Source of the DNA: a virus
Reading direction: 5' to 3' (one strand)
Virus record (IMG/VR): IMGVR_UViG_3300028897_000772
DNA: 17,975 nt
The notes beneath the pieces were generated by a model, which ran no database searches, was not told where the DNA came from, and worked only from the letters and a program-made list of their open reading frames with translations. Numbering within the stretch: position 1 is the stretch's first letter; every line of letters starts with the position of its first letter. Shown in pieces: positions 5,451-8,981 of the stretch. Both the position numbers and the translations under genes were made by a program.

Positions 5451-7243
5451 AACTATTAGATAAGATAGACAACCTACTTCAAGAGAATAGGCTTGTTAGT
5501 GAAACTCAAGAAATAATATTAGGATATAATACTTGGTTGTTTATAGAACATCCATTATATGAAGATCTTATTTATCCTATAACAACTGCTTTAACAGAAG
5601 ATGAAATATCTCATTTCCAACTATTAATGGAGATTACCAGAGAAGAGAAGCAAAGAAGAAAAGATCTTTTCAGAGCAGCAAAACAAAATGAACCCGATAG
5701 TAAGTACAGCAAAGAAGTTGAAAAAGCTTTTAAAGATATCACAAAAAAATCCAGATCTTCTTTTCATCAACTTGATGCATTAAGCAAAAAATCTTTTATA
5801 GCAGCATATATCCTTCATGGTTTGGAGAAAACTAGTAAAGATGTTCCATGGGGCAGAGCAAACAGAACTACAAAAGAGATGTATTCAGATACATTGAATA
5901 GCTATAAAGAGAAACAAAGATTTGTTGTTGATGTAATGAAAATGTATAAAAATTGGTTAGCCCAAAATGCTGAAGGTGAGAAAAGACTAACAGCAGTGAT
6001 GAAAAGATTTAAAAGTCTTCCTGATCTTGAAGCAAGTCTTGGAAGATCTACAGATAGTTTTACTACTAGTCTTTTTGAATTTGCAAAAGATAAATTTGGT
6101 AAAGGATGGTATCCAGAGGGAGCATATCTAGAATTTCTTTTTAAGATTCAGGCAAAACAATACAATTCACTTGATGAATTAAAGGGATGTATTGAACAAT
6201 GGAATGCATACCAAGGAAATAATAAAACATATAAATCAATAGATATATCTACAATCTGTCCTAAAAGAAAAAAATTGCTTGAACTAATGAAAGATTGGGC
6301 AAATGCACAAGATGATCTGGCTAAGGCAATAGAAGCAGGTGCCGATAATTCTACTATCAAAAAACTTCAGCAACGTGAAAAAGATATGGTAGTAACAGAA
6401 GATAGAAATCCAACATGTATTTATTGTTATGTTGAAAGTGCAAGAGCAATTGCAGATAAAAACCCTAAATTCTTTTTGGCTAAAGCAGAGAAAGAGGGCT
6501 TGAGATATCAAGATACTTTTAAGGGTTGGATTCAAAAGAAAAAAGGAGAATGGCAAAGAGATAAAGATGGAAATGTTCTCCTTACTAAAGTTGGTAAAGA
6601 AAATATAGAAAAATTTAATAAAATGGGTGGACTAAGATTCTTTAGTTCTGGTGATTATATTGAGGACGATGCTACCGATAAAGAAATAGAAAGAATTATT
6701 TCTGATGCCGAAATTGTTGGACTTCAATTAAAAGCAATAACAAAATCAGATAAATTTGTAAAGAAATATGGTGGTAGAACTTTTGGTAAGGGTCCATTAA
6801 GGGGTAGACCTATTTTTAATATTAATATGTCTGTTGATGAGCAGAAAGGTTTTAAATTAGAGATAGCTAAGTATTATAAGAAGCTTTATCCAGGTAATGT
6901 TAATATTCGTGTAGTTGCTTTTAATCCACCCCAAGCAGCAAAATATGCAAAAGATCCTGATGTTGATGTTGTAACTCTACTTCATTTTGGTGCTAGGGGA
7001 AGAATGACAAATAAAGATCTTTTTGTTAATATGAGTCCAGGAAGTCCTGGATGGAAATTAGCTATTGAAAAAATGACGGAAGATCTTGGTAAAGCAGATG
7101 TAAATAAAATCTTATCTAAATTATGTTGTGCAACATCAGAATGTATAACTTGCCCCAATGCATGTGGTTTTAATCCAAGAAGAGTTGCTGACTATACTCA
7201 GTTAGCTAAAGGTGGAAAGAAGGTACTAAAGACAATAGTATGA
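5447..7243 (+). CDS. Large hypothetical protein (598 aa) with a Cys cluster near the C-terminus
   Basis: ATGA coupling at both ends. The ORF is long and clean with protein-like composition. An internal CIYC motif is present. The C-terminus reads LCCATSECITCPNACGFNPRRVADY. No confident family assignment can be made from the sequence alone. Confidence 0.7.
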   Translation: MKLLDKIDNLLQENRLVSETQEIILGYNTWLFIEHPLYEDLIYPITTALTEDEISHFQLLMEITREEKQRRKDLFRAAKQNEPDSKYSKEVEKAFKDITKKSRSSFHQLDALSKKSFIAAYILHGLEKTSKDVPWGRANRTTKEMYSDTLNSYKEKQRFVVDVMKMYKNWLAQNAEGEKRLTAVMKRFKSLPDLEASLGRSTDSFTTSLFEFAKDKFGKGWYPEGAYLEFLFKIQAKQYNSLDELKGCIEQWNAYQGNNKTYKSIDISTICPKRKKLLELMKDWANAQDDLAKAIEAGADNSTIKKLQQREKDMVVTEDRNPTCIYCYVESARAIADKNPKFFLAKAEKEGLRYQDTFKGWIQKKKGEWQRDKDGNVLLTKVGKENIEKFNKMGGLRFFSSGDYIEDDATDKEIERIISDAEIVGLQLKAITKSDKFVKKYGGRTFGKGPLRGRPIFNINMSVDEQKGFKLEIAKYYKKLYPGNVNIRVVAFNPPQAAKYAKDPDVDVVTLLHFGARGRMTNKDLFVNMSPGSPGWKLAIEKMTEDLGKADVNKILSKLCCATSECITCPNACGFNPRRVADYTQLAKGGKKVLKTIV

Positions 7244-7668
7244 GATTTCTAAAATTCTTAAATGAAAAATATGATGGAACTGTACCTGGAAGAGTAGGTA
7301 AGATTTTTGCAGAGGTATTTATTAATCCTTCAAGAAATGAATATCGTGATGCCCTAGAAGCTTCTAAAGCTAGAATAGCTGATGGTGCTGTAAGAGCCTT
7401 TTTTGATCCTAAGAAAAATAATATCTGGATATGGAGGGCAGATGTACTTCACGATACTGTACTAAAAGAAATGCCTATTCCTACAGATAGTTTAAAGTTT
7501 ATCCTTGAGCCTGTAACAAAAAGGCTTTTTATTTATGGAGATTTGAATCTTTCTAGACTTGCTGGTGAGAAGGGAATAAAGGCTATAGAAGAAATAGAAA
7601 AGAAAGCAAGAAAGGCAATTAAAAAATTTGCTCCAGAATCATCTTCCTGGAGATTGGTAACAATGTAA
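7240..7668 (+). CDS. Paralog family member A (leader MRFLKFLNE; core motifs NPSRNEYRDALEASK and WIWRADVLH)
   Basis: 142 aa. Its stop directly abuts the next start (TAAATG). The core is shared with 7669 and 8547. Confidence 0.7.
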   Translation: MRFLKFLNEKYDGTVPGRVGKIFAEVFINPSRNEYRDALEASKARIADGAVRAFFDPKKNNIWIWRADVLHDTVLKEMPIPTDSLKFILEPVTKRLFIYGDLNLSRLAGEKGIKAIEEIEKKARKAIKKFAPESSSWRLVTM

Positions 7669-8550
7669 ATGAAATTCCAAAAGTACCTAACAGAAAAATA
7701 TTGGGGTAGAGTGGAATCTAGATGGACAGGTATGAACATTGAGATCTTTGAGAATCCATCCAAGAAAGAAATTGTAGATGCTTCTGTTACAGCTTTTGGT
7801 GTCAGTAGATATGTAAGGTTTATAGCAGATCCGAAAACAAAGAAAATGTATGTCTGGTCTGCTAATCTTATTCATGCAGACGTTGTACCTCAGATTTACA
7901 ATAAATCATATTCTAGTATAATATTTAATGTACTTCCAGGAATTGCTAAACACGAAGGAGGAAGATGGGTAGTCACATCTGCTGATGAAACTACGGTTAC
8001 TCCTGATAGATATAATTGGGTCTTTCAACATGACTGGAAATGGGCAGATAGGTATATAGATATATCTCAATGGCTGAAGACCTTTCGTATAGGAAAGGCT
8101 TATGAGAGTAAAGTGGGAAAATATTTGACAGAGAAATGGCTACACTCAATAGAGATTAGACCTTTTGGGAAAACACTATATACAGAAATTTTCTTTAATC
8201 CCACAAAAGCAGAGTATAGAGATGCAGCTAAGGCAAGTAAAACAGGTGTCATTCCTGCATTGAGAGGAAGAGTGGCAACAGGTTTTATTACTTCACAGGG
8301 AGATGTTTGGTTATGGAGAGGTGATGTGTGGCATTATGATCTTCCTCAAGATGCACTTAATAAAATAGGAAGAGGTACAAAAGGTTTTCATTTCGGATTC
8401 AGTGAGAATGAAGTTTCTCTGTATAGTAGTGAGTTTAAACAAATAACAAAAAAACTTGCATTGACATTAGTAGATAGATTAGCTAAAATAGAGCCTAGAT
8501 TAAAAACTGCACGAATATTAGTAGACGATATGTATTTGGAAGATTTATGA
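7669..8550 (+). CDS. Paralog family member B, made of two tandem copies of the same domain
   Basis: 293 aa. The first half begins MKFQKYLTEKYW, and the second half restarts with VGKYLTEKWL...FFNPTKAEYRDAAKASK...WLWRGDVWH. Confidence 0.7.
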   Translation: MKFQKYLTEKYWGRVESRWTGMNIEIFENPSKKEIVDASVTAFGVSRYVRFIADPKTKKMYVWSANLIHADVVPQIYNKSYSSIIFNVLPGIAKHEGGRWVVTSADETTVTPDRYNWVFQHDWKWADRYIDISQWLKTFRIGKAYESKVGKYLTEKWLHSIEIRPFGKTLYTEIFFNPTKAEYRDAAKASKTGVIPALRGRVATGFITSQGDVWLWRGDVWHYDLPQDALNKIGRGTKGFHFGFSENEVSLYSSEFKQITKKLALTLVDRLAKIEPRLKTARILVDDMYLEDL

Positions 8551-8981
8551 GATTTAAAAAATATCTGATAGAAAAATGGGAAAATACATTTAAGATAGGT
8601 CCAACAGCTATTGAGGTATTTGTAAATCCAACAAAAAGAGAATATAATGATATAGTAAAAGCCAGTAAAGAAAGTGGATGGAGCTATGCAGGGGCAACAA
8701 GAGCTTTTTATGATTCTAAAAAAGATAAGTTATGGGTATGGAGGGGAGATGTTCTTCATTCTTATATGAGTAACAAATTAAAAGTAAATGTTTTTACTCT
8801 TATAAGAATTGAGATAGATCCACATAGTAAAATCGTAAATGTTTTTGAACCTTATGGTGAGGAAGAAGTATTCGATAATGTAAAAAAGATTATAGAGAAA
8901 ATTAGAAACTTTGCACCACAGATGAAAGGATATAAGGTTTTTCATCATCTTGGTCATGCTGAGTATGAGTTTAAAATATGA
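8547..8981 (+). CDS. Paralog family member C (leader MRFKKYLIE; core motifs NPTKREYNDIVKASK and WVWRGDVLH)
   Basis: 144 aa. ATGA overlaps at both ends. Confidence 0.7.
   Translation: MRFKKYLIEKWENTFKIGPTAIEVFVNPTKREYNDIVKASKESGWSYAGATRAFYDSKKDKLWVWRGDVLHSYMSNKLKVNVFTLIRIEIDPHSKIVNVFEPYGEEEVFDNVKKIIEKIRNFAPQMKGYKVFHHLGHAEYEFKI

Follow-up and report, generated by a model that had tools for sequence, protein, structure and literature searches.

The stretch analysed here (the window) comprises 17,975 bp of DNA from an uncultured phage (IMG/VR record IMGVR_UViG_3300028897_000772; GC content about 34%), and its T4-type replication and recombination genes encode UvsW, a UvsY-like protein, a DnaB-type helicase, dUTPase and dTMP kinase. 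In UvsW, UvsY and DnaB the phage is syntenic with T4-like phages. No nucleotide match was found when the window was compared by megablast with 50,697 phage records. Between 2229 and 10396 all genes are co-directional and mostly overlapping, endolysin and spanin genes included, and within this run lies the subject of this study, an array of three small paralogous open reading frames (ORF1 to ORF3), together with a short N-terminal leader that each of them encodes. The array consists of the following units.

7240..7668, + strand: ORF1, 142 amino acids (aa), one domain copy; leader MRFLKFLNE at 7240-7266; family hidden Markov model (HMM) E=1.6e-31.
7669..8109, + strand: ORF2 unit a (aa 1-147); leader MKFQKYLTE; domain E=2.9e-48.
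8110..8550, + strand: ORF2 unit b (aa 148-293); domain E=4.6e-23.
8547..8981, + strand: ORF3, 144 aa, one domain copy; leader MRFKKYLIE at 8547-8573.

An initial annotation of the window had described three consecutive, translationally coupled and diversifying paralogs. The coupling was confirmed by ATGA start/stop overlaps at 7240, 8547 and 8978 and by a TAAATG junction at 7666-7671, and the positions and paralogy of the ORFs were upheld by BLASTP, in which ORF1 matched ORF3 with 34% identity (E=2e-22). The copy number, however, required correction. ORF1 matched ORF2 twice (E=1e-13 for residues 151-230 and E=3e-12 for residues 1-76), and it was therefore determined that ORF2 (7669-8550, 293 aa) is a duplicate fused head to tail, with two tandem domain copies meeting near aa 147/148, so that the three genes hold four copies of a domain of about 140 aa. 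As the fusion was seen in all independent assemblies as well as in syntenic relatives, it is not an assembly error.

Divergence of the array was measured against one syntenic relative, locus L009. Flanking genes share 87-97% identity with it, as against 67% for ORF1, 80% for ORF2 and 44% for ORF3. The ratio of nonsynonymous to synonymous substitution rates (dN/dS) was 0.31, 0.13 and 0.40 for ORF1, ORF2 and ORF3, respectively, compared with 0.055-0.10 for flanking core genes, so that the array genes evolve two to six times faster than these. As all three values lie below 1, indicating purifying selection, the array genes are genuine coding genes; the array may thus fairly be called diversifying as far as its fast divergence and changing gene content are concerned, with no claim to positive selection. 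Gene order also differs in L009, where genes for proteins of 146, 158 and 439 aa are followed by one for a 165-aa ADP-ribosyltransferase (ART), and the ORF2 ortholog has an additional C-terminal domain of 146 aa. In its rapid divergence, rearranged order and gene turnover relative to L009, the locus has the plasticity of the T4 internal protein (IP) loci, which likewise form a hypervariable paralogous locus between related phages.

The initial annotation could name no relative of the three proteins, and this was borne out on a wider scale. Neither they nor the 59 family members aligned here had a match in Pfam, PHROGs v4, NCBIfam 20 or the PDB sequences, and tblastn with ORF3 and a nine-repeat member against the 50,697 phage records found no match in cultured phages. 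A word-indexed homolog search with ORF3 alone returned only ORF3 itself; the family came to light only when a profile was run exhaustively against 1.84 billion cluster representatives (50% identity clusters), yielding 897 proteins at E<=1e-3, 139 of them at E<=1e-10. All named matches are 'hypothetical', and their origin is marine-sediment or viral metagenomes. Many hold 2-9 detectable tandem copies of the domain, with up to 11 matched stretches; the long members include a 1285-aa protein with nine units and another of 2323 aa. All 59 aligned members have P30 and H71, and at least 90% have M1, E9, F27, N29, E34 and R52. Of the core motif proposed earlier, P30 and H71 are the family-wide invariants; its W-x-W-R and ASK elements proved to be subfamily-specific. 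Two C-terminal subtypes were distinguished, a majority type (G-x-A...GGKW...SD...DW-x-W..KYI), to which ORF2 unit a belongs (GIA..GGRW..SAD..DWKW..RYI), and a 'FAPE' type represented by ORF1, ORF3 and ORF2 unit b. The domain also occurs in fusions: in P0117 (303 aa) it is fused C-terminally to an NT5C 5'-nucleotidase, and it is joined to a domain of about 147 aa carrying a 'YHGT' motif in the ORF2 orthologs P0002 and P0013 (439 and 291 aa). An assignment of this last extension as an ART on the strength of 'YHGT' found no support, as comparisons with the neighbouring PolyVal-type ART by BLASTP and with Pfam, PHROGs and the PDB sequences were all non-significant.

A 96%-identical ortholog of ORF1 was modelled with AlphaFold2 (AF2). 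With the 59-sequence alignment the model reached a predicted local distance difference test score (pLDDT) of 88.3 and a predicted TM-score (pTM) of 0.82; a 4-sequence alignment had given a pLDDT of only 47. The predicted topology is beta-beta-alpha-beta-beta-alpha-beta-beta, with a long helix at the C-terminal end. Confidence is low over residues 1-10 (pLDDT 62) and the chain enters its first strand at residue 11, which places the leader outside the folded core of the model. A Foldseek search of the PDB returned a gelsolin-like structure (E=4.6e-3, TM 0.37/0.55), and the best matches in BFVD were uncharacterised Rhizobium phage proteins and a 601-aa Myoviridae 'PolyVal ADP-ribosyltransferase', matched in its N-terminal part. 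The structure prediction and fold search called for in the initial annotation thus gave a confident model but a weak structural match, and the domain is best described as a predicted alpha/beta sandwich without an established homolog, with a weak likeness to gelsolin/ADF-H. Of the shared fold or active site that had been suggested, the fold is supported by the model; the active site has no catalytic signature behind it and is treated below as an alternative. A ParB/Srx-like core, suggested by the sequence pattern, was supported by no search and was dropped.

The feature overlooked in the initial annotation was a conserved N-terminal segment, M[RK]Fxx[YF]LxE. Its consensus is M-[RK]-[FL]-x-x-[YF]-[LI]-x-E and it spans 9-10 residues. 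Six genes of the window begin M-[RK]-F-x-x-[YF]-L-x(1-4)-E, namely ORF1, ORF2, ORF3 and the following three.

2315..2839, + strand: g2315, 174 aa, phrog_16075 homolog; leader MRFFRYLTE, then A.
4609..5025, + strand: g4609, 138-aa protein absent from L009; leader MRFEKYLNSLNE, then M.
8978..10396, + strand: CCA-adding tRNA nucleotidyltransferase (Pfam PolyA_pol, E=7e-32; PolyA_pol/HD), ATGA-coupled to ORF3; leader MKFTTFLINE, then AAE.

At least two of the six, g2315 and the CCA enzyme, are unrelated to the domain family. Homologs of g2315 were found in Vibrio schizo-T4 phages of the KVP40/nt-1 type, within a uvsY-uvsW...tRNA nucleotidyltransferase-gp23 neighbourhood, and the homolog in Vibrio phage nt-1 starts MTIIFERAPLKTRKGS..., without the leader. 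For the CCA enzyme, alignments with cultured-phage homologs begin only at about residue 20-44, and among the 120 closest homologs (57-100% identity; contigs up to 240 kb) 90 carry the leader. A reading of g4609 as a fifth domain copy was rejected, its score of 4.3 bits comparing with up to 12.6 for shuffled controls. The six window leaders use four Leu codons and both codons each for Phe and Tyr, a synonymous variety which indicates a constraint on the peptide rather than on the DNA.

The same leader was found on further cargo in related loci. In L009 a 165-aa protein of the ART-PolyVal family (11317-11814; Pfam E=9.5e-9) starts MRFEQYLIE followed by TAVKKPIVYHGS and is encoded directly upstream of the CCA gene, so that the slot before this gene holds ORF3 in the window and a leader-tagged ART in L009. 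In L018 (GCA_054039195.1, JBPLBI010000014.1; 209.6 kb) 27 genes were called in the locus, of which 18 are tagged, all within a co-directional run at 1305-15979 (longest unbroken run, eight), and their products include NT5C, DUF4406, RNA ligase, CCA and HD proteins and several proteins with a 'YRG/WRGS' motif; the domain family itself is not represented in that run. The CCA gene of L018 directly follows that of the tagged RNA ligase, and the two enzymes may represent a pre-loaded tRNA-repair kit. In L019 (115 kb) a regular expression detected the leader on 16 of 38 genes, all located between the lysis cassette and UvsW and including three family members and a P-loop kinase. Proteins of phrog_16075 and phrog_11975 also carry it. 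The 38,303 residues of these loci contain the core pattern [RK][FL]..[YF][LI].E 40 times, and in 37 cases it starts at position 2. By sequence, then, the leader is portable across unrelated cargo; a function in targeting is the predicted part.

Within multi-repeat proteins only the end of the leader persists. ORF2 unit b begins KVGKYLTEKWL (8110-8142), which retains the [YF]LxE part and has lost the M[RK]F part, and 135 internal repeat junctions across the family likewise retain [LIFM]-[NK]-E-E-[YFW] and have lost M[RK][FL]xx[YF]. The junctions thus keep only the cleavage-like part, as would be expected if each polypeptide required one targeting signal and each unit one cleavage site.

This arrangement resembles the capsid targeting sequence (CTS) of T4. 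In the T4 record (AF158101) IPII and IPIII start MKTYQEFIAE followed by A, and IPI starts MKTFKEFTSTTTPVSTITE followed by A (MKTFKEF...ITE). Propeptides of this T4 type are short (10-19 aa). The first 10 residues of IPIII are enough for packaging; targeting by the CTS depends on residues 4 and 7 and processing on residues 8 and 10, the prohead protease gp21 cuts after L/I-x-E, and a LIE-9 site is noted in gp21 itself (PMC9026906). The new leader has equal spacing (an aromatic residue, an aromatic at +3, an aliphatic at +4 and Glu at +6) and likewise ends in L/I-x-E, but is shifted by one residue (F3, Y/F6, L/I7 and E9 as against Y4, F7, I8 and E10); the likeness is one of pattern only. Similar L-x-E or L-I-E starts are seen in T4 gp24 (MAKINELLRE), annotated in the T4 record as gp21-cleaved, and in gp21 (MNEPQLLIE, then T), to which the protease start MSLKLITE, then T, in locus L030 is parallel. 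Unlike T4 internal proteins, the family domain is often concatenated, with 2-11 units per polypeptide, the leader is also found on many enzymes, and the mature region has no sequence likeness to T4 internal proteins. To our knowledge, the T-even internal proteins are themselves mutually unrelated in sequence, and homology to IPI-III is therefore not required for membership of this functional class.

The genomic context of family members elsewhere was investigated by scanning IMG/VR with a family sub-alignment, which gave 16 loci that were annotated by phmmer with T4 gp19-gp24 and by the family HMM. In L030 the genes of two leader-bearing family proteins immediately precede a series made up of gp21 (E=8e-21), a scaffold-like gene and gp23 (E=2e-40). 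In L028 and L023 the portal gene gp20 (E=1e-28 and 1.5e-23, respectively) has a family gene as its direct upstream neighbour, with gp21 2.2 kb downstream of the portal gene in L028, and in L024 a 347-aa and a three-repeat 903-aa family protein are encoded three called genes upstream of a gp23-like gene. Family genes also lie near the tail tube gene gp19 (L026 and L035), within a baseplate module between Phage_base_V and GPW_gp25 (L016) and, for the member P0181 (on a 69.5-kb contig, ENA ERZ1426722), 8 kb upstream of Peptidase_S77 and Gp23. The phage encoding the nine-repeat protein has UvsW, UvsX, gp32, GroES and a baseplate hub. IMG/VR scans with g5447 (the gene directly 5' of ORF1) and P0181, aimed at the head genes of 72.9-kb and 50-kb relatives, gave no match. 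As a side observation, P0181, which occurs on contigs listed in 90 index blocks, sits in a run of more than 20 same-strand genes for proteins of 130-200 aa; this run could be a very large internal-protein array.

Signals for expression were sought at the head of the co-directional run, where the following features are located.

2113-2151: terminator-like hairpin, 9-bp GC-rich with a T-run, after the vault-like gene.
2192..2199, + strand: TATAAATA, in the intergenic gap 3' of the hairpin and 30 nt before the first ORF (2229) of the run.
2229-2318: 29-aa ultra-basic ORF MAKVGKKAKGQGRRKQGKKKRKAMRKKGK, with an ATGA overlap with the start of g2315.

The sequence TATAAATA is the T4 late-promoter consensus. 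The layout of hairpin, TATAAATA and 29-aa ORF is conserved in L009, and a terminator and TATAAATA heading a run that includes the endolysin and spanin genes are consistent with late expression. The 29-aa product itself could be a protamine-like DNA-condensing peptide.

Taken together, these observations make it probable that the array encodes, at a rapidly evolving locus, internal head proteins of the T4 type, targeted to the capsid, processed by protease and ejected with the DNA. The amphipathic leader of 9-10 residues would dock the polypeptide on the scaffolding core of the assembling prohead, as the T4 CTS does, and the leader would next be removed by a prohead protease of the gp21 type (Peptidase_S77), cleaving after the Glu of [LI]-x-E. 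The same protease would separate the two units of ORF2, such that three genes yield four mature alpha/beta proteins of about 130 aa, and the multi-repeat family proteins elsewhere would be polyproteins. Retained in the head alongside the DNA, the mature proteins would be ejected at infection and act before phage gene expression, and the same tag would load other cargo in this clade, including the CCA-adding enzyme, the ART-PolyVal protein and RNA ligase. This interpretation is favoured because it accounts for the strict N-terminal position and portability of the tag and for its L/I-x-E ending, and equally for the tagging of an ART, the cleavage-like repeat junctions, the head-module neighbourhoods and the IP-like plasticity of the locus. 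The analogy with T4 internal proteins drawn in the initial annotation is thereby supported, through evidence that lay outside it, namely the CTS-like leader on unrelated enzymes and the neighbourhoods with gp20, gp21 and gp23. The T4 ip genes lie outside the head module, beside the lysozyme gene e and near tRNA genes (AF158101), and the window array likewise lies outside the head module, co-directional with endolysin, spanins and a tRNA-repair enzyme.

Several observations weigh against such a role. No head genes or protease are present in the 17,975-bp window, and no S77 protease was observed for this particular phage. Family members have K or E behind the putative cut, as opposed to A or S in the T4 proteins inspected, and L7, E9 and the aromatic residue at position 11 of the family could simply be structural. 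The family HMM run against all ORFs of the T4 ipI-ipIII region gave a best E of 0.57, and a search for similarity of the family to T4 gp67, gp68 or gp22 found none, the gp67 and gp68 part of which counts here as well. With up to about 18 differently tagged enzymes in one 21-kb locus (L018), there are far more cargo types than T4 is known to package, and among the tagged enzymes RNA ligase, NT5C and kinase belong to classes that in T4 act in the cytoplasm and are not packaged. The putative late promoter is equivocal, since TATAAATA occurs in the window three times against 2.4 expected, which is not above chance, and was not found in L019. The basic character of the family proteins (isoelectric point 9.4-9.8) is uninformative on DNA binding or packaging, because the whole proteome of such phages is equally basic. 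Packaging, cleavage, ejection and counter-defence activity are all inferred.

The most serious alternative is that the array and other tagged genes encode cytoplasmic accessory, host-takeover or anti-defence proteins which are never packaged, and whose leader is read by a factor other than the prohead core (a chaperone or protease of phage or host, a degron or timing system, or a localisation factor) or is a translation-friendly N-terminus acquired as new genes entered resident expression cassettes. This would fit the location of the window array between the lysis cassette and genes of replication and nucleotide metabolism rather than in a head module, the long runs of small, overlapping, co-directional tagged genes in L018 and L019, which resemble T4 early clusters and include the enzyme classes with a cytoplasmic role in T4, and the family members found among small accessory genes in L013-L015 and L017. 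It is nevertheless considered unlikely. The spacing and L/I-x-E end of the tag are those of the only known N-terminal signal of about 10 residues in T4-type phages, several family genes lie beside portal, protease, capsid or baseplate genes, and the synonymous variation in the leaders opposes a signal acting purely at the DNA or RNA level. Furthermore, the cargo includes an ART of a clade predicted to be virion-delivered (PMC5512222).

Those same head-module neighbourhoods would also be expected if the proteins were prohead core or scaffold components in the manner of T4 gp22, gp67 and gp68, incorporated through the leader, cut at L/I-x-E and then for the most part lost, without any part to play in the infected cell. 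The slot that gp67 and gp68 hold in T4, between portal-side genes and gp21, is filled in L030 by family genes; in L023 and L028 such genes adjoin the portal gene; and multi-repeat polyproteins with [LI]xE at each junction are reminiscent of core proteins processed into fragments. Such a function is distinctly improbable, as compact, folded units of about 15 kDa, as modelled (pLDDT 88), would be too large for the capsid pores, unlike scaffold peptides; copy number, order and sequence vary strongly between close relatives, as is seldom seen for essential assembly components; L030 carries, downstream of gp21, a distinct scaffold-like gene; and similarity to gp22, gp67 and gp68 is lacking. Finally, an enzyme or small-molecule 'sponge', packaged or not, whose catalytic or ligand site would be made up of E-x-F-x-N-P-[ST]-x-x-E, R and H, is very improbable: polar residues E25, N29, E34, R52 and H71 are indeed invariant or nearly so across a very divergent family, and there are fusions to an enzyme domain (NT5C in P0117) and an extra C-terminal domain in P0002 and P0013, but 2-11 tandem copies per chain are atypical of catalytic domains and in the model the conserved residues are placed at the end of a strand, in the centres of strands and at a helix N-cap (NP[ST]xxE), as would suit a structural role.

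The mature domain carries no catalytic signature, and a binding or inhibitory (IPI*-like) or DNA-associated role is favoured over catalysis because of the repeat architecture and rapid divergence; tentatively, its target would be DNA or, as for IPI*, a variable host factor that it binds or inhibits. A counter-defence function of the array is put forward only tentatively.

The delivery of enzymes together with the DNA has precedents. T4 Alt is a packaged, gp21-processed ADP-ribosyltransferase, and the tagged ART-PolyVal, RNA ligase, NT5C, HD and kinase proteins share with it and with polyvalent proteins the idea of enzymes delivered with DNA. Polyvalent proteins hold 2 to 15 domains of disparate activity per polypeptide (Iyer et al. 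2017, PMC5512222). In contrast to these giant chains of disparate domains, the activities here are separate and each small protein is tagged, and the array proteins of the window, with one or two copies of a single domain and no recognisable enzyme, are not polyvalent proteins. A further parallel is provided by phages phiKZ and SPN3US, in which inner-body or ejection paralogs have N-terminal propeptides that are cut after Glu by the gp21-like proteases gp175 and gp245 (PMC9026906, PMC5694885). Like the array, these are a paralogous family with a conserved N-terminal segment and a short motif ending in Glu, cleavage being a prediction for the array; unlike it, their propeptides are mostly longer than 100 residues, the motif is S/A/G-x-E, and they belong to another lineage with no sequence relationship.

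CTS-tagged, protease-processed internal proteins of T4-type phages are a known kind. What is new is the domain family, its polyprotein forms and the apparent spread of a CTS-like tag to many enzymes in an uncultured clade. It is quite conceivable, though somewhat short of probable on the present sequence comparisons, that the leader is a general capsid-loading and processing tag in a large uncultured T4-like clade, with up to about 18 proteins per 21-kb stretch packaged and injected as 'distributed' polyvalent proteins, and with the domain family as the most abundant cargo, some of it as polyproteins of 9-11 units cut by the prohead protease. If the leader is a capsid signal, injected proteins would become predictable from sequence across this branch, and its phages may pre-load tRNA-repair enzymes, ADP-ribosyltransferases and diversifying small proteins that are active before phage transcription. 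It would also imply a possible protease-cut polyprotein route to internal proteins, in a new family of about 900 clusters (50% identity), and would offer a short natural tag for T4-type capsid cargo, of relevance to phage-based delivery vectors. If it is not a capsid signal, a strictly N-terminal and extremely conserved tag on dozens of unrelated enzymes still needs explaining.

The remaining features of the window are as follows.

89-2089: 666-aa protein with a major vault protein (MVP) shoulder domain (E=3e-29), a Vault_3 repeat and SPFH/Band_7.
2841-3368: M15 endolysin; spanin-like genes are also present in the window.
5447..7243, + strand: g5447, 598-aa Cys-rich protein, directly 5' of ORF1 and with an ATGA overlap with it.
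10465-11118: 217-aa protein with a HELLH motif (HExxH, zincin-like).
11054-12547, - strand: UvsW helicase.
12548-12988, - strand: UvsY-like mediator.
13219-14589: DnaB-type helicase.
16516-17403: SPFH/Band_7 lipoprotein, phrog_200, 97% identity in relatives.

The gene directly preceding the array, g5447, has no match in Pfam, PHROGs, NCBIfam or the PDB and is kept in all relatives (79% identity). Its Cys-rich sequence includes CIYCY... and CCATSECITCPNAC, and its N-terminus, MKLLDKIDNLLQE, bears a loose likeness to a long leader. The MVP-like protein is unusual in a phage and carries no leader; no homolog of its gene was found in the L009 locus, where a TROVE/Ro60-like gene (L009 1881-3539) takes the corresponding position. 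Together with the phrog_200 lipoprotein gene it brings the SPFH-type genes of the window to two. The zincin-like protein matched no family and, like the array proteins, is fast-evolving, with 51% identity to its counterpart in L009 and a dN/dS of 0.35.

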